DNA of 64,000 bases from a virus. A model generated the notes under the pieces. The model did not search any database. It saw nothing but the letters and a program-made list of their open reading frames with translations, and was not told the DNA's origin. This document shows, one piece after another, positions 5,761 to 39,763 of this stretch. Position numbers and translations under genes: made by a program. The stretch lies in the IMG/VR virus record IMGVR_UViG_3300011116_000574, positions 36,658-100,657 of that record, one strand, 5' to 3'. Numbering within the stretch: position 1 is the stretch's first letter; the number at the start of each line of letters is the position of its first letter.

Positions 5761-5897
5761 AGGTACTCCTCAAGGTTAGGTTGATAAAATAATTGTAGCA
5801 GGGTGCGGTGACATTTTTCAGAGATTTTTAAGGGGTGTCGTAACAAGGGTTGGAGATCGGGGTACCCCGAAGGGCTGTGCTTGTCAAGCCGACACGC

Positions 5898-6083: not shown

Positions 6084-6092
6084 TTTTTCTCC

Positions 6093-6233
6093 TTATGAGT
6101 AGTAATCGGCTAGAGTGTCAAAGTCTGAATAATAGGCAGGGTCATCATAAGCACCATAGCATTCTGGGCAAAGTAGGTTGCCATTGTTTCCAACATAGTC
6201 CATTTCAATTTCGCAAAATACGCAAAGTTCCAT
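6093..6233 (-). CDS. small Zn-finger-like protein (MELCVFC...CPEC)
   Basis: 46 aa translated by hand, GGAG RBS and promoter. Confidence 0.65.
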   Translation of the reverse strand: MELCVFCEIEMDYVGNNGNLLCPECYGAYDDPAYYSDFDTLADYYS

Positions 6234-6384
6234 TTTTATCTCCGTTCGTTATGCTTCAATTTTAACACAGGCTACTGACATTTTTCCAGAGATTTTTTGA
6301 GTGTGTCGTAACTTGACAAAGATCAAAAACGGGGTACCCCGCAGGGGTCGGCGTGTCAAGTCGACACGCCGAGTGTCTTGTGAA

Positions 6385-6537
6385 TTACCGCAAGGTAATC
6401 CATTTTGTTTCGGTATCAGTTTCCACCAATACACGAACAATTTTATCGCCACTCTTGGTGGTCTGTTCTGCTACATCTAGGGCAACACCTGATGTGTTAC
6501 CGCTTGCTGATGTTACTAGGTCTCCGATTTTTACCAT
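6385..6537 (-). CDS. small beta-rich protein, paralogue 1 (MVKIGDLVTSASGNTSG...KWITLR)
   Basis: Translated by hand. Near-identical to 7487-7672 and 8171-8326. Confidence 0.8.
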   Translation of the reverse strand: MVKIGDLVTSASGNTSGVALDVAEQTTKSGDKIVRVLVETDTETKWITLR

Positions 6538-6548
6538 TTGGTTCTCCT

Positions 6549-6797
6549 TTAGTTTGATGTTGCTATTGTAGCGGATAGGTCTGACAATTCTTGATTTACT
6601 CCGTCAATTTCTCGCTGTAAAGTTTCGGTGAGTTGTCGCTTTCCAAAGCCATTATCTAAGCCAATGGATAAAAGATAACCAACCTTTATCCAACCGTGTA
6701 GGCGGTCAGCGGTTCTTGGGTATTTTATTTTATCCAATTCATACACAGCATTTACTAATTCCTCAGAAAGGTCTGCGAGTAATTTTTTGTCTGTCAT
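6549..6797 (-). CDS. hypothetical protein
   Basis: Start MTDKK after GGAG. Its 3' end overlaps the next promoter. Confidence 0.7.
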   Translation of the reverse strand: MTDKKLLADLSEELVNAVYELDKIKYPRTADRLHGWIKVGYLLSIGLDNGFGKRQLTETLQREIDGVNQELSDLSATIATSN

Positions 6798-6851
6798 TTG
6801 TTTCTCCATTTCGTTTGATGTTTTAATTTTAGCACGAGCCACCGACAAAAA

Positions 6852-6956
6852 TTATTTTTGAGTTGCTTTTGCGATTTGTGCTATTTTTTTGGCATCTGCT
6901 TTACGCTGTTCGTCACGCTCTGCTTTTACCATTTTTTTCCAGTCATCAAAATTCAT
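6852..6956 (-). CDS. small basic helical peptide (MNFDDWKK...)
   Basis: AGGAG RBS, own promoter. Confidence 0.65.
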   Translation of the reverse strand: MNFDDWKKMVKAERDEQRKADAKKIAQIAKATQK

Positions 6957-7113
6957 TTTTTCTCCTATTGGGTTGGTAGTTCTATTATGACAGACACCAC
7001 CGACATTTTTCAAGGATAACTCAGAGATTTTTTGGGCGTGTCGTAACTTGACAAAGATCAAAAACGGGGTACCCCGCCCACCCCACTTTGTCAAGTAGGG
7101 TGGGGTCTTTGGG

Positions 7114-7287
7114 TTAGAACGGAACTTCATCCCAAAGGCTTTCCTGCTCACGCATTTCATCATAGAAAAAATCAGGGTCGCACTCTGGACACATAATCAT
7201 CTCGCACTCGCAAGGGATGCCGTCAAACATCCAATCTGGAGATGAGGTCTTGAAACTGACAGGGGCGGTGAAATCAAAATCTGACAT
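7114..7287 (-). CDS. small acidic Cys protein (MSDFDF...CECEMIMCPEC...DEVPF)
   Basis: 57 aa translated by hand. Confidence 0.65.
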   Translation of the reverse strand: MSDFDFTAPVSFKTSSPDWMFDGIPCECEMIMCPECDPDFFYDEMREQESLWDEVPF

Positions 7288-7486
7288 TTTGAGCCTTTCG
7301 GTTGGTGAATACTAAAATTGTAACACAGGGGGCAGACATAAATCCAGAGAAAAATAAGGTGTGTCGTAACTTGACAAAGATCAGAAAACGGGGTACCCCG
7401 ATCTAATCCAGAGATTTTATTTTATCATCGTAACTAGAAGAATAAGCTGCCCCGCCAGGGGCGAATTTTTTCGCTGTTGAAGTGGA

Positions 7487-7672
7487 TTACCGTAGGGTAA
7501 TCCATTTCATTTCGTTACTGTCAGTTTCCACTAACACGCGAACAATTTTTTCACCAGACTTAGTGGTGAAAGGTTGAACATCAACCGCCACGCCTGAAGT
7601 GTTGCCACTCGCAGAAGTGACGAAATCGCCAACAGTTACATTTTCCAATAATGCTTCAAGAATGTTACCCAT
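7487..7672 (-). CDS. small beta-rich protein, paralogue 2
   Basis: VGDFVTSASGNTSGVAVDV...KWITLR. Confidence 0.8.
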   Translation of the reverse strand: MGNILEALLENVTVGDFVTSASGNTSGVAVDVQPFTTKSGEKIVRVLVETDSNEMKWITLR

Positions 7673-7726
7673 TTTTATCTCCTTTGTTTATGTTTCAATT
7701 GTAGCAGGGGGGACTGACAAAAATTA

Positions 7727-7867
7727 CTAATGTAATTCTGAACAGTCTTTCATAGTACCGTCAAGCAGATACTCTACGCAATAACCGCAAACTGTGTTTA
7801 GGTCACATACAGGGCAAGATACCCACTCTGACCACTCATCACAAAACATTGAACAATAATCTAACAT
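7727..7867 (-). CDS. small Cys-rich protein
   Basis: Translated by hand, CPVC...CGYC. GAGG RBS and promoter. Confidence 0.6.
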   Translation of the reverse strand: MLDYCSMFCDEWSEWVSCPVCDLNTVCGYCVEYLLDGTMKDCSELH

Positions 7868-8014
7868 TTGAACCTCTTTTCTTTATACCAAAATTGTACC
7901 ACGCACCACCGACAAAAATTGAAACGACACGCCCAAACCCAGAGAATTTGACAAGGCTTCGTAACTGTGATAAAATTTTTGCCCCTGGCGGGGCGAAATT
8001 TTCGCCCCACTTTT

Positions 8015-8104
8015 TTATCGGTCTTTTAGAATTCCAAAAGCGATTACGAATAGGGCTAGGGGTACGAACATTACGAACTCTGAGTGAATAAAGTTGTGTA
8101 GCAT
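8015..8104 (-). CDS. 29-aa membrane peptide
   Basis: MLHNFIHSEFVMFVPLALFVIAFGILKDR, with its own promoter. Confidence 0.55.
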   Translation of the reverse strand: MLHNFIHSEFVMFVPLALFVIAFGILKDR

Positions 8105-8170
8105 TTTATCTCTTTTCTTTTTGGTTATGGAATTAGTTTAGCGGATAGGTGTGACATTTTTTGAGGTGGA

Positions 8171-8326
8171 CTACCGTAGGGTAATCCACTTCAATTCGTT
8201 ATCTTTAGTTTCAACCAAAACTCTAACGATTTTTTCGCCAGCCTTAGTTGTCATAGGGTTCACCTCTACGGCTACGCCTGAAGTGTTGCCACTTGCCGAT
8301 GTTACCAAATCGCCGATGTTTGTCAT
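8171..8326 (-). CDS. small beta-rich protein, paralogue 3
   Basis: MTNIGDLVTSASGNTSG...KWITLR, AAGGAG RBS. Confidence 0.8.
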   Translation of the reverse strand: MTNIGDLVTSASGNTSGVAVEVNPMTTKAGEKIVRVLVETKDNELKWITLR

Positions 8327-8532
8327 TTGCGACTCCTTTTCTTTTTGTTGATAAATCAATAGTACCATACGCCACCGACATTTTTTGACAGACACGCCGA
8401 CAAAATAGATCCAAATTGTATACAATGTTTTTTGCGACACGCCGTCAGAGAATTTGACAACCGCTCGTAAATAAGCTAAAATTTTTGCCCCTGGCGGGGC
8501 GAAATTTTTTCGCTATTTTTTTCGGCGGGCGA

Positions 8533-8649
8533 TTATGATTTTTCCTCGCTCTCTTTACTATCTGCACACGCAGAATAAATAAATACGAATGGCATTGATG
8601 CGAATACGATTACGGATACGGTTAGGGTTATGTTTAGTAGTGTTAGCAT
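8533..8649 (-). CDS. 38-aa membrane peptide
   Basis: Translated by hand, own promoter. Confidence 0.55.
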   Translation of the reverse strand: MLTLLNITLTVSVIVFASMPFVFIYSACADSKESEEKS

Positions 8650-8704
8650 TTTTTCTCTTTTCGTTAGGTTGATGTTTCAATTGTAGGGGATAGGTACGAC
8701 ATTT

Positions 8705-8902
8705 TTACCAATTAGGTTTCATACCCTTGTGAGTGTCGCAAGTGTTTCCTGTACCTTGTTGGATAGGGCAGAAACAAATTACACAAGCAATTTGAACGGC
8801 GTTAGGGGTAACTAGGGCTAGTTCCAATTCAACGCTATCGGCGAATGATAGTTCGCTACTGTCAATCTGATTTTCACCATTTACGATTTTGATGTATCCC
8901 AT
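8705..8902 (-). CDS. hypothetical Zn-binding protein
   Basis: MGYIK...CVIC...CDTH, own promoter. Confidence 0.65.
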   Translation of the reverse strand: MGYIKIVNGENQIDSSELSFADSVELELALVTPNAVQIACVICFCPIQQGTGNTCDTHKGMKPNW

Positions 8903-9128
8903 TTTTTTCTCTTTTCTTTTTCTTGATGTTTCAATTGTAGCGCATAGCACCGACATTTTTTGACAGACACGCCAGAGATTTTTGCGGGGCAAAAATTGAA
9001 CAAATGTTCAAATTGGCGGGGCAAAAATTTTACCATAGGGGTATGACAAAAACGGTTAGCGACACGCCGAAAATAAAAAAACATTGGATACAATCTTTTT
9101 TCAAAACACTAGCCAAAATGCCCAAAAA

Positions 9129-9150
9129 TGTCGGCGGTATGTGTTACCAT
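9129..9150 (+). promoter_or_regulatory. array-type promoter, divergent orientation
   Basis: TGTC-N12-TACCAT. A second copy lies at 9352-9373 (TGTC-N12-TACAAT). Confidence 0.8.
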
Positions 9151-9184
9151 TGATGTATCAACAAAAAATGAAAGTAGGTTCAAA

Positions 9185-9343
9185 ATGGACATTTTGGAAA
9201 AAGTAGTCAAGCAACGCCTAGCAAATGCTAAGGCAACCGCAACCAATTTTGATGAATTGGGTTATGACAGTAGTGCCGAATTTTGGCATAGTGTCGCTGG
9301 AATTCTTGAAGCAATTCTTGATGAGGCAGAGATTTGGGCATAG
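9185..9343 (+). CDS. hypothetical protein
   Basis: Start MDILEK, downstream of the promoter at 9129. Confidence 0.7.
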   Translation: MDILEKVVKQRLANAKATATNFDELGYDSSAEFWHSVAGILEAILDEAEIWA

Positions 9344-9407
9344 CCCAAAAATGTCTGCCCTATCCGCTACAATTGACACATAAACAAAAAATGAAAGTTG
9401 GTAAAAA

Positions 9408-9707
9408 ATGTCATACTCTTACAATCCTAACGGCGAAAAGGTTCACGCCTACATTTTGGAACTAGACGCAATTTCGTTCGGCGTACTAATGGCGAATTTC
9501 GCGCATAGTATTTTTTCAAATGATAGTTGCGCCTACACAATTGAGAAATGGTGGAAATTCTGTGATGATGTAGCAGAATGGCTAATTTATGATGATGAGG
9601 AATTTGCGAATTCCCTAAACATTTATACGCCGACAGAATGCGCCGATTGTGGCGGAAAAGGTTGGTCATTGAACCCGATTGAACACGAATACTATTGCGG
9701 TTCATAA
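9408..9707 (+). CDS. hypothetical protein
   Basis: 99-aa ORF downstream of the promoter at 9352. Confidence 0.7.
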   Translation: MSYSYNPNGEKVHAYILELDAISFGVLMANFAHSIFSNDSCAYTIEKWWKFCDDVAEWLIYDDEEFANSLNIYTPTECADCGGKGWSLNPIEHEYYCGS

Positions 9708-9839
9708 AACGCTAATGCGTAATGGTGTGCCTATGGGCGCACTATTTTTTTTTGCCTACACGCAAAATTTTTGTATCATACAAAAAAAATAAATATTAAC
9801 ATTTTGATCAAACTGATTTATATGTGACCAATATCACAT

Positions 9840-10013
9840 TTATAAGTTGGCGGGGTCTATAAAAGAGCTATAAACTAAAAGCAGGGCAGCTATAGTCAAT
9901 ACAATGGGAGCAAATATTCCCTTTTTGGGTAATTTGCCCTTAATAATGTCTCTTGACAGCAAACAGATCATAAAAATGAGTGAAGTCAGGTAGAATAAAT
10001 TCAAAATAATCAC
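9840..10013 (-). CDS. small two-TM membrane protein
   Basis: Translated by hand, GTG start after AGGAG. Confidence 0.55.
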   Translation of the reverse strand: MIILNLFYLTSLIFMICLLSRDIIKGKLPKKGIFAPIVLTIAALLLVYSSFIDPANL

Positions 10014-12186: not shown

Positions 12187-12250
12187 ATTTTAGAAAAAAA
12201 TAATGTTACACTAGAAACCTAATCAAAAAAATGAAAAGGTGTGTGTATAC

Positions 12251-14179
12251 ATGAGCGGGATAGAAAATCCTTATGAAAACTTTATTGCGCTTAGCCGTTA
12301 TGCTCGTTGGCTAAGCGAAGAAAATAGACGAGAAACTTGGTCAGAGACCGTAGATAGATATTTTGATTATATTCAAAAACATCTAAAGGACAAGCATGGC
12401 TATGTGCCAGATGAAAAGCTTGTTGCCGAATTAAAACAATTTGTATTCGATAGAAATGTAATGCCTAGCATGCGTTCAGTTATGACCGCAGGTACTGCGT
12501 TGGAAAGAGATAATGTTGCAGGATATAATTGCTCTTTTCTTCCTGTCGACTCACTTCGTTCATTCGATGAAGCAATGTATATTCTTATGTGTGGAACAGG
12601 GGTAGGTTTCTCAGTAGAGAGTATGTATGTGAATAAGCTTCCAGTAATTGCAGAGTCATTCGAAAAGACCGACACAATTATTGTTGTAGAAGATTCAAAG
12701 GCGGGCTGGTCAAAAGCACTGCGTGAACTTATTGCATTACTATATCAGGGTCAGATTCCTGCAATTGATGTTTCTAAGGTCCGACCTGCTGGTGCAAGAC
12801 TAAAAACTTTTGGTGGTCGTGCATCTGGTCCTCAGCCATTAATTAATCTTTTTGATTTTACTATCAAAACATTTAAGCATGCTGCTGGTCGTAAACTAAA
12901 GCCTATTGAAGCGCATGATGTCATGTGTAAGATCGGCGAGGTAGTTGTAGTCGGTGGTGTACGCCGTAGTGCTATGATTTCTCTTTCCGACCTCAGCGAT
13001 CACGATATGGCAACGGCAAAAACAGGTGCTTGGTGGGAGAATCATCCACAAAGAGCATTGTCTAACAACTCAGTTGCATTTGCTGGAAAGCCAGAAATGA
13101 ATGACTTTATTGCAGAATGGAAATCTGTTTATGACTCTAAGTCTGGTGAGCGTGGTATTTACAATGTAAAAGCTGCACAAACACAAGCAGCAAATTTTGG
13201 TCGCAGAGATTCAGAAATTCATTATGGAACTAATCCCTGCTCCGAAATCATTCTTAGACCATATCAGTTCTGTAATCTTTCAGAAGTTGTACTTCGTGAA
13301 GAAGACACAGTTGAGCATATTGCTCGTAAAGTAGAGTTGGCAACTATTCTTGGAACTTGGCAGTCAACCCTAACAGACTTTAAGTACTTGCGTAAAATTT
13401 GGAAAGATAATACAGAGGAAGAGCGTTTACTTGGAGTTTCACTTACTGGTCAGTTTGGTCATAAGTATATGTCTGGTCAACAGGGGCTTGAAAAGCTCGC
13501 TAACACCCTTGACTTTCTTAGAGAACTTGCAGTAACAACAAATGTTGAAGAGGCTGGCAAAATTGGAATTAATCCATCTGCAGCAATTACCTGCGTAAAG
13601 CCATCTGGAACTGTATCTCAGCTAGTTGGAGTTTCATCTGGCATGCATCCTTGGCACAGCGATTACTATATTCGCACTGTTCGTGGAGATAAAAAAGATC
13701 CACTAACTCAATTCCTAAAAGATTCTGGAATTCCCGCCGAAGATGATTTTATGAAGCCAAATGACACTACTGTTTTTTCATTCCCAATGAAAGCACCTAA
13801 AAATGCTATTAAGCGTAATGATCTTACAGCAATTGAACATTTAAATGTTTGGCTTACATACCAAAGACACTGGTGTGAGCATAAGCCATCAATTACAGTT
13901 TCTATTCGTGAAGACGAATGGATGGAAGTTGGTGCTTGGGTATACAAGCACTTTGATGAATTATCTGGAGTTTCGTTCCTGCCATATTCTGAACACACCT
14001 ATGTACAAGCACCTTATCAGGATGCTACAAAAGAAGAGTATGATGCTTTTGTAAAGAAAATGCCAAAGCATATTGCTTGGGAAAATCTTTCCCTTTACGA
14101 AACAGAAGATAATACTACTGGTTCTCAATCACTTGCCTGTACAAGTGGAGAATGTGAATTGGTAGATATTGGGGCATAA
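12251..14179 (+). CDS. nrdJ: class II (B12-dependent) ribonucleotide reductase
   Basis: PSMR, YNCSF, TNPCSEI, CNLSEV, TCVKPSGTVSQL and C-terminal ACTSGEC. Confidence 0.93.
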   Translation: MSGIENPYENFIALSRYARWLSEENRRETWSETVDRYFDYIQKHLKDKHGYVPDEKLVAELKQFVFDRNVMPSMRSVMTAGTALERDNVAGYNCSFLPVDSLRSFDEAMYILMCGTGVGFSVESMYVNKLPVIAESFEKTDTIIVVEDSKAGWSKALRELIALLYQGQIPAIDVSKVRPAGARLKTFGGRASGPQPLINLFDFTIKTFKHAAGRKLKPIEAHDVMCKIGEVVVVGGVRRSAMISLSDLSDHDMATAKTGAWWENHPQRALSNNSVAFAGKPEMNDFIAEWKSVYDSKSGERGIYNVKAAQTQAANFGRRDSEIHYGTNPCSEIILRPYQFCNLSEVVLREEDTVEHIARKVELATILGTWQSTLTDFKYLRKIWKDNTEEERLLGVSLTGQFGHKYMSGQQGLEKLANTLDFLRELAVTTNVEEAGKIGINPSAAITCVKPSGTVSQLVGVSSGMHPWHSDYYIRTVRGDKKDPLTQFLKDSGIPAEDDFMKPNDTTVFSFPMKAPKNAIKRNDLTAIEHLNVWLTYQRHWCEHKPSITVSIREDEWMEVGAWVYKHFDELSGVSFLPYSEHTYVQAPYQDATKEEYDAFVKKMPKHIAWENLSLYETEDNTTGSQSLACTSGECELVDIGA

Positions 14180-22419: not shown

Positions 22420-24039
22420 ATGAATATTCAAAAAGCCACATGGCAAAATGGAGATCGCAAGATGAGTCTTGCATTCCCATTTGCTAAAGTAGATAAAGAA
22501 AATCGCACAGTATCTGGCTTTGCTACATTGGATAATGTAGACAAGCATGGTGATATTGTTACTTCAGATGCAAGTAAAGCTGCATTTGAAAGATTTCGCG
22601 GAAACATTCGTGAAATGCATCAACCAATTGCGGTAGGTAAAATCCTTTCTTTTAACGAAGAAGATTACTACGATGCTAATGAAGGTAAAAATTACAAAGG
22701 TGTATTTGTACAAGCATATATTTCAAAGGGTGCTCAGGATACTTGGGAAAAGGTTCTAGATGGCACCCTTACAGGTTTTTCAATAGGCGGAAATATTGTC
22801 ACAGCCTCTATGGAAAAGGGTGACGATGAGGCAGACGAAGAGCGTAGAGTTATTAAAGAGTATGACCTACACGAATTAAGTCTAGTTGACAATCCCGCAA
22901 ACCCACTTGCAAATGTTTTTTCAATTCAAAAGAGTGGTGATAGTTTAATTTTTAAAGGAATGGCAACAGAAATTGAAACAGAAAATGTCTTCTGGTGCGG
23001 AACAGACCAGGTTGCTACAGCTTATTCGGGTGAGACAAAGGACTGCAGCATTTGCGGTGACACGATGGACACCATTGGCTGGGTTGAAAAAAGCGATACA
23101 GAAAAGAATCTATCTATTCAAAAAGTAATCAATGGTTACTTTAAGAAAGACGATGCTCCAGGTTCAGTACATGGTCCAAATGGAACACTAGATTCAAGTT
23201 CAACACCACTTAATCCCGTTATTGATTCAGAGGAAACAATTAACTTGTATCCAGATCAGAACAACATTAGTACAACAAAGGCTGCTGTTGGAGTTGGAAG
23301 TTTTGTTACATGGAAATCTAGCGGTGGAAAAGCATATGGTAAAATTATAAGTATTAAATCAAAAGGAACAATTAAGGTTCCAGATAGCTCGTTTGAGATC
23401 ACAGCAGAAAAGGATGATCCAGCAGCACTAATTAGAATTTATGAGAAAACAGCCGATGGTTTCAAAGAAACCGACAAAAAGGTTGGTCATAAAGTAAGTA
23501 CCCTTAAGCCAGCAAAAGGCTCAAAGGCTAAAAATAAAATCAGCAAAGGAGGTAGTATCGTGACAGAAGAAAATCTAGAAACTCAGGAAGCTGAAGAAAT
23601 TAATGAAGTAGTTGAAGAAAGTGATGATGCAGCAATTGAGAAGGCTGCAGATGTTTCGGAAATAGAAGTCGATGAATTAGACTTTACTAAGATGGTTACA
23701 GACCTCAAAGACTTTGTTGGTGAAAAGCTTGAGAAGAGCGCAGAAAGCGCAAAAGATAGCACAACAGAATTTAAGAAAGCTCTAGAAGCAGAAACATCAG
23801 GTTTGATAAAGAAATTTGATGAACTTTCTGCTGAAAAAAATGAGCTGGCTAAATCTATTGATGCTCTAAATAACCTTGTTACAGAACTACAAAAGTCTCT
23901 TACAGAGACAAACGAAAGGGTCGCATCTTATGAGAGCGACACCGCAATTAAAAAGTCTGGTGAAGTTGACAAAACAACATCAGTAACAAGAGAAGATAAA
24001 TTTTGGCAAGGATCCTTCCTCGGAGTAAATGCCCTATAA
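22420..24039 (+). CDS. prohead protease/scaffold fusion (HK97 type)
   Basis: IREMH, GFSIGG, ELSLVDNPAN and a C-terminal coiled coil. Confidence 0.9.
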   Translation: MNIQKATWQNGDRKMSLAFPFAKVDKENRTVSGFATLDNVDKHGDIVTSDASKAAFERFRGNIREMHQPIAVGKILSFNEEDYYDANEGKNYKGVFVQAYISKGAQDTWEKVLDGTLTGFSIGGNIVTASMEKGDDEADEERRVIKEYDLHELSLVDNPANPLANVFSIQKSGDSLIFKGMATEIETENVFWCGTDQVATAYSGETKDCSICGDTMDTIGWVEKSDTEKNLSIQKVINGYFKKDDAPGSVHGPNGTLDSSSTPLNPVIDSEETINLYPDQNNISTTKAAVGVGSFVTWKSSGGKAYGKIISIKSKGTIKVPDSSFEITAEKDDPAALIRIYEKTADGFKETDKKVGHKVSTLKPAKGSKAKNKISKGGSIVTEENLETQEAEEINEVVEESDDAAIEKAADVSEIEVDELDFTKMVTDLKDFVGEKLEKSAESAKDSTTEFKKALEAETSGLIKKFDELSAEKNELAKSIDALNNLVTELQKSLTETNERVASYESDTAIKKSGEVDKTTSVTREDKFWQGSFLGVNAL

Positions 24040-29917: not shown

Positions 29918-32900
29918 GTGGTAAATCGTATTGACATTCAAGTTAATGCCACGGGAAACTTTGGTCAACTTCATGCTCAAATAGCGGAGTTAAAGGCTGC
30001 AGTTGCACAACTGCAGTCTAAACCACTTTTAGGAGATACTGGTAGGGCTACTGCTGCTCAACTTTCTCAAATACAAACACAGTTTGACAAGATGCTTTTG
30101 GCAACAAGAGCATTTAATGTTGAAACTGTAAAGATGTCAAACTCTATAGATAACTTTGGAAATAGATTACAGGCAGGAAAACTACACTTCTCTGAGTATG
30201 CAAGAATGTACCGTCAGACAATGAAGGGCATGCGTAACGAACTTGACGCACTTGCAGATTCACAAGCAAGAGTTGCAAAATCGGTTGTTCTTCCAGATGC
30301 ATTAAGAACTGGTTACGCTAGAGTAATTACAAATCTTACATCCGACCTTAAATCACTTAATGCTGCAGAAGAAGCAGCAATAATAAAAACAAAAGCTTTA
30401 AACTCTGTTATCCATGGAATGGGAACATCTTTGGTTAATATGGGTAAAAATACACAGTGGGCTGGTCGCCAGCTTACTGTTGGTCTTACCGTTCCAGTTG
30501 CAGCATTTGGCGCAATGGCTGCAAAAGTATTTAAAGATGTAAATACAGAACTTACAAGAATGCAGAGAATGTATGGTACTGGTTTATCTCTGCCTAGCGA
30601 ACAAGAAATAGCAAAAGTATCTACCGCAATTATAGATCTAAGTAAAAAAGTTGCAGAAAATATGGGTATTGCCCAAAAAGAAACTGTTACTGCTGCTGCT
30701 AATTTTGCTGCTGTTGGTACAACTGGAGATGCACTTATTGTAGCAACAGAACAGGCTATGCGACTTTCAAAACTTGGTGCCGTTAATGCTGACACCGCAC
30801 AAAAAACAATTACATCTTTGCAGACAACATTTAGGGTAGGCACTAAAGATGTTGCTGAAGCAGTAAACTTTTTGAATGATATTCAAAAACAGACATCCAC
30901 AGACTTACAAGATCTAACCGATGCAATTCCTCGTGTTGGTCCAATTGTATCTCAACTTGGTGGAACATATAAAGACACCGCAGTTATGATGGTTGCCATG
31001 AAAGAAGCTGGTGTTCCAGCAGCACAATCTGCAAACGCAATCAAATCCGCAGTTGCGTCTATGATTGGTCCAACTCGTCAAGCCAGGGATGAGTTTGAAA
31101 AGTATGGAATTAGTCTAACAAAAATTAAAGATGATACTCAGGGTAATCCAATTAAAATGATTGAAGCACTTCAGACTTCTTTGCAAAAATTATCACCACT
31201 TGTTCAAGCTCAGTTAATTGAAAAACTATTTGGTAAGTTTCAGTTTGCTCGTGTGACTGCACTTATTAACAATCTTGGTGCTGCAGGAAGTCAGACACAA
31301 AATGCTTTTCTAGTAGCAAAAGCTAGTGTTTCAGAACTTGCAAGACTAGCAGACTCAGAAATGAAAATTGCTACTGAATCAACAACAGCAAAGTGGTCTA
31401 GAGCACTAGAAGGATTTAAATCAACCTTGCTTCCTTTGGGTGAAAAGTTTATGAAATTTGGAACCAAAATCTTAGACTTCTTCTCTAAAGTAATGCATTT
31501 CTTAGATAGATTTAAACCTTTAGAAAACCTCTTAGTTAATGTTTTGGGTGGAGCAGCAATAGTTGGTCCTATTCTTATGCTAGTTGGTTTGTTTGGAAAC
31601 CTTGCTGGTAACATAATTAAGGGTGTAAACTACTTCAGAATGTTTGCTCAAGGGGCTAAAGATGGCGGAATTTTAGCTGGCTTTAAGAGCATGGCTAACT
31701 TCTTTGAAATGATTAACATTGAAACACTTGCATCTTCAAAAAATATGGATGGTCTTACAACATCTACTCAAAAAACCGTAGAGGCTTTTGCTGTACTTAA
31801 TCAAGAAATTGGAATTATGACCAGAAGTCTTAATGAAGTATTTGCTCGTAGCACTAGAATGCCAATAGTTGCATCTCCATATGCACAACAAACATTGGCA
31901 CAATTACAGACAATAAATCCCGAATATGTTGGCGGAGTAACAAAGGGACTAGAAAGACCACACATGTTCCCTGCTGCAAGACTTTGGGAAGGTTGGGCTG
32001 CAAATGAAGGAAACATACAGGGCAGAGTGCCAACGCTAAACGCCTTTTTACAAAATAGAGCACTTAATCCAACAATGGAGGCTCAGGAAAACTTTATGAG
32101 AGGTGGAATGCCAGAACAATGGGGTGCTCCAGTTCCATCAGGTGGTTTAGCTGCTCAACTTCAAAAAGAATACGGAACCGAAGATGTTATTCACGGTCCA
32201 AAATTTGGTCTTTCAAAAGAAGATGTTTACTCAAGAGGTTTTCAAAAAATAGAAAACATTAGGAGTAAAATACTTGACGAAAGAATAGCTGCAGATAGTA
32301 AAGTAGCAATAGAGCTTGCAAAAATTGACGCATTGCCAGAAGAACAAAAAGTTCAAGCTTTAACACAAATTATTCAGAAAGTTACATTTACTGAAGAACA
32401 ATATTTCAACAACCTAATTGAATCATTAGTTCAAACTCAAGCTTTACTTACCGCTCCAGAAGAAATGCTAAAGGCTGTAGACACAAAGGTTAAAACAGTC
32501 CTTGCTGACCCAACAATTGAAAATAAGTCTGTTGCTATTCAAGCAATACTAACCGAGTTTAACGCAGACTTTAAACTTCTTGGAGGAACAGTAGTTGAAG
32601 AAATAACTAAATATAGAACTTTAGTTCAACAGACAATACTCAGTACCACATCCACTTTTGAAACTGCCATAGCAGCAGCTAATTTTAGGGCTGGTATAGT
32701 TGCTAGTGCCGAAATGTTTGGCGGGGTAAGAAAAGGTGCTTTAGGAAGATTTGTCAGTATGGACAAACAAGCTTTATCACAATCAATATTAATGGCAAGA
32801 GATATTCCAAAAGGTTTCCAAACTGGTGGAGCAATTCATGCACAAGACGGTGTTTGGGTTCCAGGAACTGGCTCTGGAGATAGAGTTCCTGCAATGCTTG

Positions 32901-35900
32901 AGCCAGGAGAATTTGTTGTTAATCGTAATGCTGCTAAACAATATGGCGGGTTACTAGAACATTTAAACTGGAATGCTGCTCCAAGATTTGGAACTGGTGG
33001 AACTCCTAGTCCTACATCTGTTGGAATTAGAGGATATCAAAATGCTGGAGATGTAGAAAAGCCTAGGGTTAAAGCTTGGGTACCAAAAGATTTACTTGGC
33101 TTATCTAAAGGAGAAAACTTTTTTGCTCGCGACATGTATTCTCCAGGAAGCCAATTTCGAAGAATATTGTATGGTCCGATTTTAGATCAATTAAGAAATC
33201 AAGGCTATAAAGATGATGTTATTGAAAGAATTAAAAAAAGTTTTGACTCAGACAGAAATTTAAGATTATATGAGGATAGGTCTGCTTTATCAGAAGCACT
33301 TTCATCAGTAATTAGAAGAGGTAATCCATATGGAATAGACATAAGGGCTTTTTCAGAGGATGCTCGTGGAAGAATTATGGCAACAATTGAAAACGAAAGA
33401 CTTAGAACACACGAAGTTCATGATTTCAAATACTTTGACCCTAATGCACCAGTAAGGTTTTCACCAACAAGAGGCATGCCATCAATATTTAAACCTCTAA
33501 GAAAATTGAGTTTTGATGAAGCATATGGAGGAGATATAGGTTGGGTTAGAAAGCTAGTCCCAAGTCTAGCTGAAACATATATGTTAGCCCCATGGAAAGC
33601 CGATGATTATTTATTAGAAAAGCATGGGGCGCATATACTCTCTACAGCTCGTACACCACGCATAACTGTTGCTCAAAAAGGCGGTGGAATTCCAGGATAT
33701 CAAAGCGGATTAACAGTCCCAAGTATGGCATCTTTAAATAGAGAAGAACAGCAAGCTTTGATGGAAGAATATATTCAAAAAGCCCTACGCCCATCAAGTG
33801 CATTAAGTTTGTTACAAGAAGAAATTTTTTCTGCTGTTAGCCCATCTCAATTAGAATTGATACAAAAAGGTTATGGACATGAAGTTTTGCAATACAATTC
33901 AAATCTTGCAAAAATATTAGAACAGTACACTTTTAATGAAAAATCATTTGTTCTTCGACCAGGATATACTCCGCAAAGAGAGAGCTTTAACCTTTTCAAT
34001 ACATTGGGTAAAAATGAAAGATTCCATATGGGCATGAGCAAAACTCAATTTGAAACTTGGCAACCAACATCAATGTTTTCTACTAGCGAAAGGTCTCCTT
34101 TATTTACTAGAACTTTGGCTCAGGCTATCAAAGAGCAGGGCAAGGGAATTGGAAGTATTGGAGTTGTTCCAGAAGAACTAAGTTTAAGTCCTTTTAGTGA
34201 AAAAATGTATCAGAATTTAAGAAGACGGGGAATGGGAATAGAAGTTACAGGTAACGAGCCAGACTTTAGATCAACCCTATACGAAACAAATGATATTGAT
34301 TTAGAAGAATCAAGAAATACAACAAGACATATTTTGGATAGATTGTTGAGAAGAATAACAACTGACAAACTTTACAATAACTCTTTTACTTATAATTCTC
34401 AAAAACCTATTAGTGGTCAGCCTGGTGCTTATAGCATTAGTCGTGGTTTTGTGGATCAAATGGATGTTCAACATAGAATTCCAGAATTAGAAGCAAGAAC
34501 AACCATGATGAGATTCTTGAGACAAGGTATGTTTAAGCAAAAGGGTGGTGGAATTCCAGGATATGAGCAAGGTGGTGGTCCTACATGGATGGCTAGAGGC
34601 AATCCATATACAGAAGCACAGTTCCAACAATCTTTAGAATCTTGGATTAGACCAGTTCTTCACGGAATGGCTCCTTGGAATAATCCAGAAAAAGAAACTT
34701 ATCGACCAATGGGAGAATTATACAAAGGTTTCTACAGAGACATATTTAATGATCAGATGAGAAATATTGGTAGACAAGATCTTCTAAGAGCAATGGTTGT
34801 AGATAATGTTAAGGGCGGAGCAAACATGCACCCTTGGCTTACAAATATGGTAAATGCAGCAGAAGATCGCTATTACCCACCAGGCTTTCAGGGAATTAGG
34901 GTTCCAGCTATGGAAAATATTCAAGGTCCATGGGTAGCAAAAACAACAAGACCATTTACATCCTTTACTGACATTAAGGATACCAGCTTCTTGAAGAAAA
35001 GATTTATGCCAGACTTTGGAGATAAAAGATTCTGGAATGCAATGAATCGCGGAAACAAACTTCCATTTTTCTTGCATGCAATGACTGGACCAGAAACTAT
35101 GGGTCTGCCAGTTTCAAAATTATTTGCTGGACAAACTTACTATGGAAATGAAGGCGAGTATGTTTTACCACAAGGTCAAAAATTCCCAATGACGGGATAC
35201 AGTAGTGACCTTGCTACTAGATTACCAATAGTCCATTCTATTGCTCCAGGCTCAACTAAGATGATTGGCGGGATGAGAATTCCTGTTGCTCAAACTGGCG
35301 GTATGATTCCAGGATTCCAAGAGGGATACACAGATTATCTTGGCTCTAAAATTACAGGTCCGCTAGGATATGCTGTTCAGAGCGGAATTACGGGGACATA
35401 TAATCTAGAAACTAGCACAGGACCACAAACAGCTTATCTGAAGCAAATGTTTGAGCCTGGAATGTTTGATTATGGCGAAGCTCCAGTTAATAAAAGAGAG
35501 ATGGTTATGGAAGCATTCCTTAACCAATTACAAAGAGGCTTGGGTGGGTCTCAGGCTGCTATAGATCAAGTGTATTCAAGATTAATTGATCCATCTGGCG
35601 AAGGAGCATTAAGAGAAACCTCTGTTCTAAGGTCAAAGTTTTTGGAAGGTTTTGAAACTTACAAGAGTTCTGGATTATCAACAGCAGTTGGCGTAGAAGA
35701 TTTTAAGGGCAGAATAGATCCTCAACAAACATTCAAAAGGTTTATGGAGTCAGCACTTATTGGTAATGAAGATCTCCATGATGAAAACTTTGGCTATGTA
35801 GGCAAAACACCAACTGTTGTTGATAGTGGTATAACCGCTATACACAAACTATTAAAGGGTTATAGTGGATTTGATAATACTATATCTGAGCATGTAAACC

Positions 35901-38900
35901 TTGGAAATATGCACGATATGCGTAAAGCTGCAATGGTGGCAAAAACTTTACTTCAAGAGCAGGGAATCAGTATTGAAGAATTTAGTAAAACTCATATTGA
36001 TAGTTTAAGGTCAAAACTTTCAGAGGAACTTATTCATAACGCATTATTAAAAGCAACTGGCGGAGTCCCCGAATTAATGACCGTGTTTGATGAACTTACG
36101 CAAAAAAGCTATGGAGCAAATTTTGTTCCATCAATCACTAAAGTTTTGCACAAAAGACTTGATAGTTTAGCAAGGTTTGCAGATCCCACAAATCCTATGT
36201 CTGGAGCATTACCAAAATCAACTACACCACCACTTGCATCTAACATTATGAAAGGTTTTATGACCACTAGACTTCAAACTGGTGGAAGTGCTTGGGTTCC
36301 AGGATTTGGCGAGGGCGATAGGGTTCCAGCCATGCTTGAACCTGGTGAGTATGTAATTAATAAAAAAGCTGCTAAAGCATATGGCGGTTTACTAGAAGAT
36401 ATTAACTGGAATCAAGCCCCTAGATTTGAAACTGGAAATGAAGTTGGCAATAGACAAACTAGAAGAGGAAATGTTCCAATTGCTGTTACAAAAAACCAAG
36501 TTGGGGCAAATATTAAAGAATTTAATAATATGATGGCGGGTGTTCCAAGAATTGGATCAACATTAATTGCTGCAGGACAATCATTAAAAGTTTCAATTCT
36601 TAATGGAGCGCAAGCCTTAAAACAATCTGCAATAGCAACCAGAGAAGCCAACATGACTAGAGGAATGATTGCAAAAAATGAACTTAGAGGATTAAAGGAT
36701 AGTGTTGTTAATGGTGTAAGAAGTGGTGTTCTTGGTGCCGCTAAAGCTCCTGGAGCAATGATGAGAGGAATTGGAAGCTTTGGATATAATTCAATAGCAT
36801 CAATTAAAGAGGGTGGTAGAAACTTTGGTACGGGCTTTATGGGAGCAAGGCAAATGCAACCGATCCTTGGCGCAGACGGAAAGCAAGTATTTGATGAAAA
36901 AGGAAATCCTCAAAGCCGTTATGCAAAATTTAGTGAAGCAAAAGGTGTCGGTGGAAAGCTTGGCTATGCTTTAGGAAGACAATCTAGACCAGGAATGGGT
37001 TCTATGATTGGTGGTCAAATGCTTGGTATGGCTGCCATGCAAATGGCTGGAGGAATGCAGGAGGGTACTGCAAAATCTGCACTGTCTGGTGCAGGAATGG
37101 GTGCAATGCTTGGCGGTATGACCCCACTTGGTCCAATTGGTGGTGCTGCTATAGGAGCAATTGCATCGGGCGCATATAGCATGTATAAGCAGCATGAACA
37201 AAAACTTAAAAATGCAGCAACTCTAGTCAAAGACTCTTTAAATATGAGTGCTATTGCAATGCAACACTTAGGTGTTCAGGCTAGAGATTTTTCAAATATT
37301 ATGATTGATTCTTCTGGAAAAGCAACAAAAGCTACATCAGAATTTCAAGTTCAGGTTAATGATTATAAAAATGCTCAAGATGAAGAAACAAAAACTGCCG
37401 TTCAAGGAATGAAAGAAAAATTAGAATCGGGAGATATTTCTGGACTAAAAGAAATTATAAAAACAAGAGTTGCAACACAAATGAGCAGCCTTGTCAATCC
37501 AAATGATCCAGAAGCTAGAAAGAAAGTAATTCAAGACAACAAGGCTTTTGTTGCTTCATCTGGAGCAGGAATTGCAACACAAAGAGAAATTTTTTCTGGA
37601 ATTTCTTCAAAAACAACTCCAGAGTCAGCTATAAAACAACAACTAAAGCAGCTAGGTCTTTTTGACTTTAATTCTGTACAGAAAACTCAAATGATATTAC
37701 CAGCAGGAGTAAACAGGAAAAAATATCTTGAAGAGCATCCTTTAGCTGGACAAGATTTAACTATTGCAAATTTAGCAGCGGGTACAAATATGGGTGCTAA
37801 TACTACTCAAAAAATACAAATGACTAAAACCGCTAGTTCAATAACTTTTGACGAATCAAAAATGCAAGCTTTAATTACACAACTTCAAACAAAAACAGAT
37901 CCAATGCAACTTGGGAAAATGCTTGGACCATTAAATAAAGCAAGCGGAGATGTAAAATTGTTTAAAGAATCTATGAGCACTGTTGGTGTTGGTGGTGCTG
38001 GTTGGCAAAAACTTTTAGAAAGTGTAAAGAAGATGGATCCAGCTTTAGCAAAACTAGATCAACAATACGGAAGATATATTACAGATGGTACTCAAATAAT
38101 TAGAATAAATAATCTTATGTCTGCTGGAATGACACAATTAAATATTTCTCAACAAAGGCAAATTAATACTAATCCCAACTTAATTTCTGGATTAGAAGCT
38201 CAGTATAGTGCACAAAGTGCCGTAAGTGGCGGAATAGCAGATTGGATTTCAAATGCAGCACAGTATGACGCACAACAAAATGATCAAGCAGATGCTGCAA
38301 ATAAAGCAGCAGAAGCTTTACAAAGTCAAAAGGATCACATAAACAATTTAATTGATGGTCAAAACAATTATATTAAGTGGCAAAATAAAGCTATTGATGG
38401 TGTGCAAAAAGAAATGGATGCAAGAAACAAACTTGCAGATACACAAAATAAAGAAATCGAAAGAGAAAGAACACTAGCAGACCTAAAAGACTCTGTAACG
38501 GCTGCAAGAGCTTCTGGAAACTTACTTCAAATGGCAAGTGCTCAAAGCAAGTATAACGAAGAATTAGCTAAACAAGAAGAAGCTAAGAAAAAAGAAGCAG
38601 CTGATGCAGCCGATGAAAAGAAAATTGCAGCCTATAAAGCAAATATTGATAAAGCAAGTGCTCAAATTGAAAAGTATAATAAAAAACTTGAAGATCTGGA
38701 TAAAGCTTCAAATGACACTACAAAAACACAATCTAAGAACTGGAACACTGTTTCTGGAAAAGCGCATAAAGCAGAAAACGCAGTTAATGATGTTGGCACA
38801 GCCATTAAAGATGTTGGAAGTGGTGGGACATGGACTAGCCTAAAAGATTTCCAAGAAAAAGTTCTTGGTCAAAAAGGTATGAAGGGTAAATTAGAGGCTG

Positions 38901-39763
38901 CTGGATTATCTTCAGATCAAGTAAGAGATAAGATAAAAGAGCTATACACAAGTTTTGGGGGAAGTAAACAGGCAAAAGCAAATGAAGCGTTAGTTTCTAC
39001 TAAAAATGCAATCCTTGATATTAAAGATGCATCAGAAAAAGCTTTAGCTGTTCAACTTTTCACCAATATGTACACAGCAGACCCAACTGGAAATGTTAAA
39101 GACATGTCAAAGAGAGCAATGGCTGCTGCACATCAATTTACAGCTGCTACAAGTAATATGCCAACATCTCCTCCCACCCCAACACAAGACATGAAAAATG
39201 GTGCTGGTGACGGAAATTGGTATCAAGATCCAAAAGAAAAAGATTATTACTGGTTGTGGAAAGCAAAGGATAAAAAATTCTTTGAGACTCCTTCAGACAA
39301 AGCTGAGATGAAAGAAAAGGAAAGATTTGGATGGCACGACTATAGCGGTGGTAAATGGGGCGCAACAATTGAAGGAAAAGCTTTTGGTGGAATAATACAT
39401 GCAGCTACTGGTATAGGACCAGTTATGGGTCCAGGTGGACCAAGAGATGATTTAATTCCCGCCATGCTTTCAAATGGTGAGTATGTAATTCAAGCATCAT
39501 CTGTAAATAAATACGGAAAGACTATGATGGATGCAATTAATGGAGGAAACTTTTCTCCTAGATACGCAACTGGTGGTATAATGAGATCATATAGTGTTGG
39601 CGGGGATATTAATAACAATAGTGTTCTTCCAGCCCCACAGTACAATGTTAACATTGTTGTAAATGGCGCAAATGCAAGCGCAGATGATATAGCCGATATG
39701 GTTGCAACTAGATTTAGAAGAGAGACAGAAAGTATGTCTTCAGGTAGGAGTTTGAGAGCATAA
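29918..39763 (+). CDS. tape measure protein with internal cargo domains
   Basis: 3281 aa. TP901-type core (aa ~180-500), three PAML-x-x-GE[FY]V motifs, position after the chaperones. Confidence 0.92.
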   Translation: MVNRIDIQVNATGNFGQLHAQIAELKAAVAQLQSKPLLGDTGRATAAQLSQIQTQFDKMLLATRAFNVETVKMSNSIDNFGNRLQAGKLHFSEYARMYRQTMKGMRNELDALADSQARVAKSVVLPDALRTGYARVITNLTSDLKSLNAAEEAAIIKTKALNSVIHGMGTSLVNMGKNTQWAGRQLTVGLTVPVAAFGAMAAKVFKDVNTELTRMQRMYGTGLSLPSEQEIAKVSTAIIDLSKKVAENMGIAQKETVTAAANFAAVGTTGDALIVATEQAMRLSKLGAVNADTAQKTITSLQTTFRVGTKDVAEAVNFLNDIQKQTSTDLQDLTDAIPRVGPIVSQLGGTYKDTAVMMVAMKEAGVPAAQSANAIKSAVASMIGPTRQARDEFEKYGISLTKIKDDTQGNPIKMIEALQTSLQKLSPLVQAQLIEKLFGKFQFARVTALINNLGAAGSQTQNAFLVAKASVSELARLADSEMKIATESTTAKWSRALEGFKSTLLPLGEKFMKFGTKILDFFSKVMHFLDRFKPLENLLVNVLGGAAIVGPILMLVGLFGNLAGNIIKGVNYFRMFAQGAKDGGILAGFKSMANFFEMINIETLASSKNMDGLTTSTQKTVEAFAVLNQEIGIMTRSLNEVFARSTRMPIVASPYAQQTLAQLQTINPEYVGGVTKGLERPHMFPAARLWEGWAANEGNIQGRVPTLNAFLQNRALNPTMEAQENFMRGGMPEQWGAPVPSGGLAAQLQKEYGTEDVIHGPKFGLSKEDVYSRGFQKIENIRSKILDERIAADSKVAIELAKIDALPEEQKVQALTQIIQKVTFTEEQYFNNLIESLVQTQALLTAPEEMLKAVDTKVKTVLADPTIENKSVAIQAILTEFNADFKLLGGTVVEEITKYRTLVQQTILSTTSTFETAIAAANFRAGIVASAEMFGGVRKGALGRFVSMDKQALSQSILMARDIPKGFQTGGAIHAQDGVWVPGTGSGDRVPAMLEPGEFVVNRNAAKQYGGLLEHLNWNAAPRFGTGGTPSPTSVGIRGYQNAGDVEKPRVKAWVPKDLLGLSKGENFFARDMYSPGSQFRRILYGPILDQLRNQGYKDDVIERIKKSFDSDRNLRLYEDRSALSEALSSVIRRGNPYGIDIRAFSEDARGRIMATIENERLRTHEVHDFKYFDPNAPVRFSPTRGMPSIFKPLRKLSFDEAYGGDIGWVRKLVPSLAETYMLAPWKADDYLLEKHGAHILSTARTPRITVAQKGGGIPGYQSGLTVPSMASLNREEQQALMEEYIQKALRPSSALSLLQEEIFSAVSPSQLELIQKGYGHEVLQYNSNLAKILEQYTFNEKSFVLRPGYTPQRESFNLFNTLGKNERFHMGMSKTQFETWQPTSMFSTSERSPLFTRTLAQAIKEQGKGIGSIGVVPEELSLSPFSEKMYQNLRRRGMGIEVTGNEPDFRSTLYETNDIDLEESRNTTRHILDRLLRRITTDKLYNNSFTYNSQKPISGQPGAYSISRGFVDQMDVQHRIPELEARTTMMRFLRQGMFKQKGGGIPGYEQGGGPTWMARGNPYTEAQFQQSLESWIRPVLHGMAPWNNPEKETYRPMGELYKGFYRDIFNDQMRNIGRQDLLRAMVVDNVKGGANMHPWLTNMVNAAEDRYYPPGFQGIRVPAMENIQGPWVAKTTRPFTSFTDIKDTSFLKKRFMPDFGDKRFWNAMNRGNKLPFFLHAMTGPETMGLPVSKLFAGQTYYGNEGEYVLPQGQKFPMTGYSSDLATRLPIVHSIAPGSTKMIGGMRIPVAQTGGMIPGFQEGYTDYLGSKITGPLGYAVQSGITGTYNLETSTGPQTAYLKQMFEPGMFDYGEAPVNKREMVMEAFLNQLQRGLGGSQAAIDQVYSRLIDPSGEGALRETSVLRSKFLEGFETYKSSGLSTAVGVEDFKGRIDPQQTFKRFMESALIGNEDLHDENFGYVGKTPTVVDSGITAIHKLLKGYSGFDNTISEHVNLGNMHDMRKAAMVAKTLLQEQGISIEEFSKTHIDSLRSKLSEELIHNALLKATGGVPELMTVFDELTQKSYGANFVPSITKVLHKRLDSLARFADPTNPMSGALPKSTTPPLASNIMKGFMTTRLQTGGSAWVPGFGEGDRVPAMLEPGEYVINKKAAKAYGGLLEDINWNQAPRFETGNEVGNRQTRRGNVPIAVTKNQVGANIKEFNNMMAGVPRIGSTLIAAGQSLKVSILNGAQALKQSAIATREANMTRGMIAKNELRGLKDSVVNGVRSGVLGAAKAPGAMMRGIGSFGYNSIASIKEGGRNFGTGFMGARQMQPILGADGKQVFDEKGNPQSRYAKFSEAKGVGGKLGYALGRQSRPGMGSMIGGQMLGMAAMQMAGGMQEGTAKSALSGAGMGAMLGGMTPLGPIGGAAIGAIASGAYSMYKQHEQKLKNAATLVKDSLNMSAIAMQHLGVQARDFSNIMIDSSGKATKATSEFQVQVNDYKNAQDEETKTAVQGMKEKLESGDISGLKEIIKTRVATQMSSLVNPNDPEARKKVIQDNKAFVASSGAGIATQREIFSGISSKTTPESAIKQQLKQLGLFDFNSVQKTQMILPAGVNRKKYLEEHPLAGQDLTIANLAAGTNMGANTTQKIQMTKTASSITFDESKMQALITQLQTKTDPMQLGKMLGPLNKASGDVKLFKESMSTVGVGGAGWQKLLESVKKMDPALAKLDQQYGRYITDGTQIIRINNLMSAGMTQLNISQQRQINTNPNLISGLEAQYSAQSAVSGGIADWISNAAQYDAQQNDQADAANKAAEALQSQKDHINNLIDGQNNYIKWQNKAIDGVQKEMDARNKLADTQNKEIERERTLADLKDSVTAARASGNLLQMASAQSKYNEELAKQEEAKKKEAADAADEKKIAAYKANIDKASAQIEKYNKKLEDLDKASNDTTKTQSKNWNTVSGKAHKAENAVNDVGTAIKDVGSGGTWTSLKDFQEKVLGQKGMKGKLEAAGLSSDQVRDKIKELYTSFGGSKQAKANEALVSTKNAILDIKDASEKALAVQLFTNMYTADPTGNVKDMSKRAMAAAHQFTAATSNMPTSPPTPTQDMKNGAGDGNWYQDPKEKDYYWLWKAKDKKFFETPSDKAEMKEKERFGWHDYSGGKWGATIEGKAFGGIIHAATGIGPVMGPGGPRDDLIPAMLSNGEYVIQASSVNKYGKTMMDAINGGNFSPRYATGGIMRSYSVGGDINNNSVLPAPQYNVNIVVNGANASADDIADMVATRFRRETESMSSGRSLRA

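Follow-up and report, generated by a model that had tools for sequence, protein, structure and literature searches.

Tape measure proteins (TMPs) of mycobacteriophage Douge occupy the tail lumen as extended trimers and are ejected in front of the DNA (PMC13033339), and in Thermus phage P23-45 the N-terminal part of the 5,002-amino acid (aa) TMP, gp96, works as a virion RNA polymerase for the transcription of pre-early genes (PMC10770324). Kinases and ADP-ribosyltransferases (ARTs) recur in injected 'polyvalent proteins' (Iyer et al. 2017, PMC5512222), the T7 kinase gp0.7 broadly disarms host defences (PMC13645617), and the 'Gratiaviridae' gut phages carry a HipA-related kinase within their structural gene block, for which late action and superinfection immunity were proposed (Benler et al. 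2021, PMC8008677). Here we describe a predicted kinase-fold domain inside a giant TMP, encoded in a 64,000-nucleotide stretch of an uncultured phage (positions 36,658 to 100,657 of the 100,657-bp IMG/VR virus record IMGVR_UViG_3300011116_000574, 37.3% GC; hereafter, the window). The domain, which we call module D, is probably a compact atypical kinase distantly related to HipA-like kinases, and most likely an active ATP-dependent phosphotransferase.

The P23-45 protein is likewise a giant TMP with an enzyme and provides a functional precedent for TMP-borne enzymatic cargo. However, its RNA polymerase is N-terminal, whereas the predicted kinase described here lies in the middle of the protein, in a linker-bounded cassette of several modules. 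Polyvalent proteins follow the same concept, with kinases and ARTs or other effectors in one polypeptide for early host modification, but their kinases are of the Ser/Thr/Tyr type without a C-terminal subdomain, and the paper that describes them does not mention TMPs. The kinase of T7 is an early-gene product that the virion does not carry. The Gratiaviridae kinase is also located among structural genes, but it is a stand-alone gene outside the TMP with a strong similarity to HipA (HHpred probability 99). Phages were already known to encode HipA-family kinases, to fuse enzymes to TMPs and to inject polyproteins that contain kinases, each as a separate observation; we found no description in the literature of a kinase inside a TMP.

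Phage kinases such as that of T7 can act only after their expression. A TMP with a kinase inside it, if our interpretation is true, would arrive with the DNA and could act before defence sensing, and the domain would be a new compact branch of the atypical-kinase superfamily. Together with the P23-45 RNA polymerase, it would point to giant TMPs as carriers of enzyme cargo in general. Module D is short enough to be expressed easily, and the kinase hypothesis is therefore testable in vitro without a cultured host.

Candidate catalytic motifs of module D and their conservation

Module D is the fourth of four modules (A, B, C and D) that form a cassette in the middle of the TMP. The gene, the domain and its candidate catalytic elements are as follows (positions are those of the window; residues such as K39 are numbered within module D).

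29918..39763, plus strand: TMP gene (P0002), a single open reading frame (ORF) of 3,281 aa that holds the entire cassette
30638..31234, plus strand: PhageMin_Tail domain (Pfam), the canonical TMP core, aa 241-439
35327..36271, plus strand: module D (P0001), the kinase-fold domain, aa 1804-2118, 315 aa with no stops
35378..35401, plus strand: Gly-rich loop QSGITGTY, with G23 invariant and G20 in 9/10 copies
35432-35446, plus strand: AYLKQ, containing K39
35441..35443, plus strand: invariant Lys K39 (TMP K1842), candidate ATP-phosphate-binding residue, in [YF]-[LIV]-K
35498-35518, plus strand: EMVMEAF, containing E62
35510..35512, plus strand: invariant Glu E62 (TMP E1865), candidate alphaC Glu, in M-x-x-E-[AS]-F-x-N-Q
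35753..35791, plus strand: catalytic-loop motif ALIGNEDLHDENF, with G146, N147, D149, L150, H151 and N154 invariant
35816..35830, plus strand: VVDSG, with a DFG-like metal-binding Asp; D166, S167 and G168 invariant, 17 residues after the catalytic Asp

The preliminary description of this DNA, made from the sequence without database searches, had placed five kinase-like motifs in a domain inside a TMP. All five were found at these positions in one frame of the 3,281-aa protein, and the domain (aa 1804-2118) is embedded in a TMP that is supported by Pfam (PhageMin_Tail, aa 241-439, E = 8e-29) and by PHROG, where 14 of the 16 matching families are annotated as tape measure (best E = 1e-99). The folded core of module D spans approximately aa 1810-2090; conservation is poor in the final ~30 residues, which make up a tail.

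We compared the domain in ten copies, which come from seven proteins and fall into five subtypes with 23-39% identity between subtypes. Across these copies, 26 positions were invariant: G23, K39, M59, E62, F64, N66, Q67, R70, G74, A78, D80, Q81, L101, S103, G146, N147, D149, L150, H151, N154, D166, S167, G168, A243, F266 and R277. The D-x-H-x-x-N motif, the conservation of which the preliminary description had named as a check on its proposal, was thus conserved in every homologous copy, as were the Gly loop, the Lys, the Glu and the downstream Asp. The catalytic set of the protein-kinase-like (PKL) superfamily (Gly loop, Lys, Glu, Asp, Asn and metal-binding Asp) is present and ordered, with a plausible kinase-like spacing; TMP D1952 is the candidate catalytic base, and E62 aligns to a conserved Glu of both HipA_2 and HipA_C. 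Because the catalytic residues stay invariant while just 26 positions are invariant overall, this pattern argues against a relic or a coincidence. Module D has kept a Gly loop together with the Lys, the alphaC Glu, the D-x-H-x-x-N motif and the Asp of DSG, and for this reason it is probably an active phosphotransferase.

Similarity to known kinase families

HipA-like kinases (HipA_C, PF07804), which include E. coli HipA, HipT and the Legionella HipT(Lp) (8ezr/7vkb), have a catalytic loop, [LIV]-G-N-x-D-x-H-x-x-N-[FL], that is nearly identical to that of module D. A phmmer search of the Protein Data Bank (PDB) with the domain (E <= 10) returned two matches only, HipT(Lp) (8ezr) and the HipA_C protein 7vkb (E = 1.4). 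The alignment at the catalytic loop reads LIGNEDLHDENF versus LVGNEDMHLKNF, and the loop of the domain aligns to L-V-G-N-E-D-M-H-L-K-N-F of HipT(Lp). When the HipA_C model was run over the whole phage genome, it gave one candidate, at 35711-35800 (E = 0.013, 11 bits). HipA_C was not listed in the hmmscan of the domain, and it was the top Pfam match of the relative P0006, which carries three copies of the domain (E = 3.9e-4, 20.6 bits, in two stretches).

We further compared profiles by hhalign, using the local alignment of ten copies for the domain, and alignments of 54 diverse HipA_C proteins, 10 HipA_2 proteins and 28 Pkinase domains drawn from sampled genomes. The comparison with HipA_2 (PF20613) had a score of 34.1, a probability of only 30-38% and P = 3-5e-4, and extended over 102-105 collinear columns. 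Collinearity runs from E62 through the Ser strand and the catalytic loop to the metal-binding Asp D166. The catalytic loop of HipA_2 differs from that of module D. We evaluated this score against several controls. Shuffles that kept the motif scored 14.6±1.6 (maximum, 20.7), and none of 100 reached 34.1; block shuffles scored 16.6±3.2 (maximum, 25.9), the reversed alignment scored 16, and six other TMP segments scored 10-20 against HipA_2 and HipA_C. Because the shuffles, the reversed alignment and the other TMP segments all scored far lower, the similarity to HipA_2 at the profile level appears to be specific to module D and to reach well past the motif. Against a narrow clade of E. coli-type HipA, hhalign aligned 15 columns only (probability 0.2%). 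The comparison with canonical Pkinase domains gave 15.1, which is background, but genuine HipA_C and HipA_2 profiles gave background values as well, so that this comparison has no power.

A feature search of the ESM Atlas, the neighbours of which we treated as a lead and not as proof, ranked unnamed clusters of ~300 aa first (0.96-0.97). The named neighbours were LepB_N, PI3_PI4_kinase, HipA_2 (15/30 matches), HipA_C and Fam20C, all of which are atypical kinases; in the PI3_PI4_kinase neighbour clusters, just 19% of the members carried that family.

Module D, like HipA, also has a predicted helical C-lobe, which in the alignment ends where HipA ends. However, the two differ in several respects. 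Module D has no HipA N-terminal subdomain, since it starts ~20 residues before the Gly loop, directly after a linker, and no Pfam N-domain match was found in it. Its Gly loop is G-[ILV]-[TN]-G-x-[YF], compared with G-x-Q-x-K in HipA; its metal-binding Asp lies in V-D-S-G, compared with P-x-Y-D; and the spacing between the two Asp residues is 17, compared with 23. Finally, HipB or HipS antitoxins are absent from its context, and module D lies inside the TMP ORF with tail genes as neighbours.

Predicted structure

We predicted the structure of module D by AlphaFold2 from shallow alignments: model 1 was built from alignment A2 (6 rows) and model 2 from alignment A7 (5 rows, including the divergent copy of the relative P0008). 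Both were compared with 48,161 PDB representative chains using an exhaustive structural aligner, and the atypical kinases among the top 50 neighbours were counted by our own tally. For model 1, 11 of the 50 were atypical kinases, with Shewanella HipA at rank 1 (Z 4.8), CotH at rank 2, the 7wcf kinase at rank 5, CtkA at rank 9 and HipT at rank 12. For model 2, the number rose to about 30 of 50. Its first six ranks were CotH (Z 7.2, 214/288 residues aligned), CtkA (6.0), E. coli HipA (5.7), Shewanella HipA (5.7), MavQ (5.5) and 7wcf (5.0), followed at lower ranks by ATM, PI4K, PI3K, SMG1, HipT, Tel1, Fam20C, Vps34, mTOR, actin-fragmin kinase and Golgi casein kinase; PI3K and PI4K structures had Z values of 4.3-4.9.

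The best structural matches to model 2, CotH (a Bacillus spore-coat Ser/Thr kinase, 5jda) and CtkA (Helicobacter pylori, 3akj; 191 residues aligned), are atypical kinases of small size whose C-lobe is helical, as predicted for module D. In contrast to this resemblance in predicted fold, they have no sequence similarity to it: identity in the structural alignments to this low-confidence model is 3-10% (3% for 5jda), with a root-mean-square deviation (rmsd) of 5.5-6.2 Å. Although a single structural match is not proof, the enrichment of one rare fold class in both models is unlike what an unrelated fold would be expected to give. As far as models of low confidence allow, the enrichment for atypical kinases in two models from different alignments speaks for the kinase-like fold anticipated in the preliminary description. 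By sequence, the families closest to module D appear to be the HipA-like kinases; by predicted structure, CotH, CtkA and HipA come closest. Our preferred interpretation is a small, new family within the PKL superfamily.

Distribution of the domain among relatives

A HMMER scan of 1.84 billion representative proteins retrieved five clusters only, all of them giant TMPs of 2,929-4,885 aa, and a word-indexed search returned the same near relatives. Several of the proteins carry more than one copy: P0006 has three (aa 538-823, 2392-2648 and 3161-3448), and P0007, a protein of 4,885 aa with further C-terminal cargo to which we could give no assignment, has two (aa 1829-2107 and 3677-3936). The copies repeated inside one TMP are divergent in both proteins, with 25-30% identity. 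We found no stand-alone or mid-sized homologue among proteins of 173-552 aa or of 553-2,000 aa, and no match in 50,697 phage records; IMG/VR and JGI metagenomes contained near-identical loci only. Beside these searches, we note that the closest ESM Atlas clusters consist of hypothetical proteins of ~290-320 aa from Spirochaetota and phages (score 0.96-0.97, 184-191 of 256 features shared). These may be stand-alone relatives that the sequence searches missed.

One related locus, L005 (IMGVR_UViG_3300032330_000956, 3001-9927), encodes a TMP without the kinase-fold module (~2,309 aa in the matched stretch). Because this TMP is 68% identical to P0008 in its best segment and nevertheless has no such module, module D is, judged from the compared sequences, an optional and dispensable cargo. 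It probably represents a small family that is confined to giant TMPs, carried by related uncultured siphoviruses whose hosts are likely actinobacteria. The nearest cultured relatives of the capsid protein of this phage are Streptomyces siphoviruses (54% identity; Streptomyces phages account for 127 of 227 matching records), and an actinobacterial host is plausible for this reason.

Organization of the cassette

The cassette lies between two copies of a long boundary motif, its modules are separated by short linkers, and hydrophobic segments of the TMP lie on both sides of it.

31520..31627, plus strand: hydrophobic uncharged segment (Kyte-Doolittle), aa 535-570, candidate membrane-inserting segment upstream of the cassette
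32825..33001, plus strand: long boundary motif, copy 1, GG...DRVPAMLEPGEFV...PRFGTGG, aa 970-1028, at the start of the cassette
33008-33667, plus strand: module A, linker-delimited
33680-33709, plus strand: short linker G-G-x-I-P-G-[YF]-x-x-G, at aa 1255
33713-34537, plus strand: module B, linker-delimited
34544-34576, plus strand: short linker of the same pattern, at aa 1543
34583-35287, plus strand: module C, aa 1556-1790, linker-delimited
35297-35326, plus strand: short linker of the same pattern, at aa 1794
36281..36436, plus strand: long boundary motif, copy 2, GGSAWVPGFGEGDRVPAMLEPGEYV...PRFETG, aa 2122-2173, at the end of the cassette
36992..37186, plus strand: Gly/Ala/Met-rich uncharged segment, aa 2359-2423, glycine-zipper-like, downstream of the cassette
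39386..39577, plus strand: long boundary motif, copy 3, close to the TMP C-terminus

The core of the long boundary motif is ...D-R-V-P-A-M-L-E-P-G-E-[FY]-V.... Over its ~55 residues, the three copies can be written as G-G...[GP]-G-x-G/x-D-x-[VI]-P-A-M-L-x-x-G-E-[FY]-V...Y-G...[LM]-x-x-[IL]-N. A profile search of the PDB with an alignment of the whole TMP, the result of which was dominated by this TMP motif, matched it to the TMP gp16 of mycobacteriophage Douge (8zdo) at two places (E = 1.4e-15). The motif appears to be a widespread TMP feature, possibly a docking, hinge or processing site. In P0008, the place equivalent to the Gly/Ala/Met-rich segment has weak matches to a Gly-zipper and to DUF1269. 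If both flanking segments were to insert in a membrane, the ~1,790 residues between them, all cargo included, would be on one side of it.

Occupancy of the modules differs among relatives: module A was found in two proteins, B in six and C in five, with C absent from P0005. The GC content of module D is 37.7%, compared with 37.3% for the genome. No Pfam or PDB sequence match was obtained for modules A to C (E <= 10 for module C). Module C has a motif series that resembles R / S-x-S / E-x-E (TYRPMGE, PFTSFT, NEGEYVLPQG) and is reminiscent of ARTs; the rows of its alignment, from four relatives, are all at least 89% identical.

Proposed delivery and alternative interpretations

We propose that module D belongs to a set of optional cargo modules that the central part of the TMP holds between repeated Gly-rich linkers. 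In the tail, the TMP would fill the lumen; at infection it would be expelled ahead of the DNA, and its cargo would arrive in the host envelope or cytoplasm as a pre-made protein and then refold. The refolded kinase could phosphorylate a host target before phage gene expression, for takeover or for counter-defence. The cargo-like traits of module D are the repeated linkers on its flanks, its absence from the L005 TMP, the coming and going of the neighbouring modules, and a GC content equal to that of the genome. Catalysis, the class of substrate, refolding, cytoplasmic delivery and a biological role are what we infer from these observations. A more far-reaching model, which we consider tentative and somewhat doubtful, is that the whole TMP serves as a modular effector-delivery polyprotein. 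In this model, a kinase-fold module, a possible ART-like module and two further modules would be threaded into the cytoplasm before the DNA, host defence or takeover targets would be phosphorylated before transcription of any phage gene, the pre-made kinase would be a virion-borne counterpart of the T7 kinase, and modules would be duplicated and swapped between phages in an arms race.

Several results weigh against a HipA-like kinase that is active and delivered in this way. No curated family cut-off was reached: the HipA_C model gave 11 bits here and 20.6 bits for P0006, compared with a cut-off of 30.5. The models of HipA_2 (PF20613), PI3_PI4_kinase (PF00454) and CotH (PF08757) had no match at E <= 10, and the LepB_N model and NCBIfam gave no match. 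The hhalign comparison with the 54 HipA_C proteins in itself favours a HipA-like domain (probability 62-65%, P = 6e-5); the aligned stretch begins at the helix that precedes the catalytic loop and continues to the C-terminal ends of the two domains. However, its score of 40.6 must be attributed mostly to the 14-residue motif, because motif-keeping shuffles scored 34.0±2.4 and 1-2 of 60 reached 40.6. A 4-row profile of the domain, searched over 121 bacterial genomes, returned 8 chance-level matches, none of which fell on the HipA genes of these genomes. Both AlphaFold models are of low confidence, with a mean pLDDT of 50.6 for model 1 and 51.7 for model 2 (pTM 0.57). Residues ~1-120 have a pLDDT of <50 and no N-lobe beta-sheet was modelled, and only the C-terminal helices reach 65-88. 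Foldseek found no match in the PDB at E <= 0.001, and its top rows were unrelated helical proteins; all Z values of the exhaustive aligner were <8, the caution line of the tool below which common arrangements are possible, with an rmsd of 5-7 Å. In addition, a folded domain of 30 kDa is too large for the lumen of the tail tube, so that it must be stored in an extended form and refold, and ATP is reachable only if the domain enters the cytoplasm.

By their own models, therefore, module D is not a member of HipA_C, HipA_2, PI3_PI4_kinase or CotH. Of the assignment to a HipA/PI3-4-kinase-like domain in the preliminary description, a remote similarity to HipA_C and HipA_2 is retained, whereas membership in these families is not, as the scores were under the cut-off or the family models had no match. 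Its further proposal, a protein kinase comparable to HipA toxins, does not follow from these results, since protein kinases (CotH, CtkA, HipA and Fam20C) and lipid kinases (MavQ, PI3K and PI4K) occur about equally among the structural neighbours.

In one alternative, module D has a kinase fold and a substrate other than protein. It might phosphorylate a lipid, a sugar or another small molecule on the inner membrane face at the site of TMP insertion, in the manner of PI3/PI4 kinases, MavQ and LepB, or transfer AMP in place of phosphate as SelO-type pseudokinases do. Lipid kinases are as prominent as protein kinases in the structural comparison (MavQ, Z 5.5; PI4KIIalpha, 4.9; PI3KC2a, 4.8; PI3Kalpha, 4.8), and LepB_N and PI3_PI4_kinase lead the named neighbours in the language-model search. 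The spacing from the catalytic Asp to the metal-binding Asp is ~18 in PI3K, to which the 17 residues of module D are nearer than to the 23 of HipA (numbering of the HipA_C alignment), and two hydrophobic segments of the TMP flank the cassette. However, similarity at the sequence level was found solely to HipA-like protein kinases, the PI3_PI4_kinase and LepB_N models had no match, and the top structural matches, CotH, CtkA and HipA, are protein kinases. We consider this alternative, which is a variant of our main interpretation, rather unlikely.

An active kinase could also work in the producing cell, on phage or host proteins in late expression or tail assembly, or in the block of superinfection. 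The TMP is a structural protein encoded by a late gene, late action has been argued for a HipA-family kinase encoded among head genes (Benler et al., PMC8008677), and the domain could be folded before tail assembly, with ATP at hand. However, embedding in the middle of a protein that is expelled, the linkers and the swappable neighbouring modules fit cargo better. Moreover, the enzyme fused to the TMP of P23-45 acts after delivery (PMC10770324), and two to three copies per TMP are hard to square with a role in assembly; we therefore regard action in the producing cell as improbable.

It is very improbable that module D is a non-catalytic structural or spacer module (setting length, binding the tube or interacting with a membrane) with kinase-like motifs that are a relic or a coincidence: although TMPs are mostly structural, AlphaFold left the N-lobe unfolded, no family model passed its threshold and the tail lumen is too narrow for folded enzymes, the Gly loop, Lys, Glu, Asp, His, Asn and Asp are invariant over five subtypes with only 26 invariant positions in total, the module is optional and hence unneeded for tail building, and the collinear similarity to HipA_2 is far above the controls.

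Genome context

The TMP gene starts with GTG and is preceded by a ribosome-binding site, GGAGG, 7 nt upstream. The order of genes around it is head protease, capsid, Ig-domain tail protein, a small ORF, the TMP, a small ORF and a minor tail protein of 1,499 aa, and the upstream Ig-domain tail gene is tail-tube-like. Family match and gene position agree, and we conclude from both that the ORF encodes a phage tail TMP; relatives are named 'TP901 family phage tail tape measure protein' in their sources.

Two further genes of the window may be noted. A ribonucleotide reductase gene is located at 12239-14179, upstream of the structural module (PHROG 367, E = 2.5e-191). The prohead protease ORF (22420-24039) encodes 539 aa, and the best stretch of its match to PHROG 9427, the best protease family, covers the first ~244 residues only; the C-terminal half may represent a nested scaffold or extra domains.

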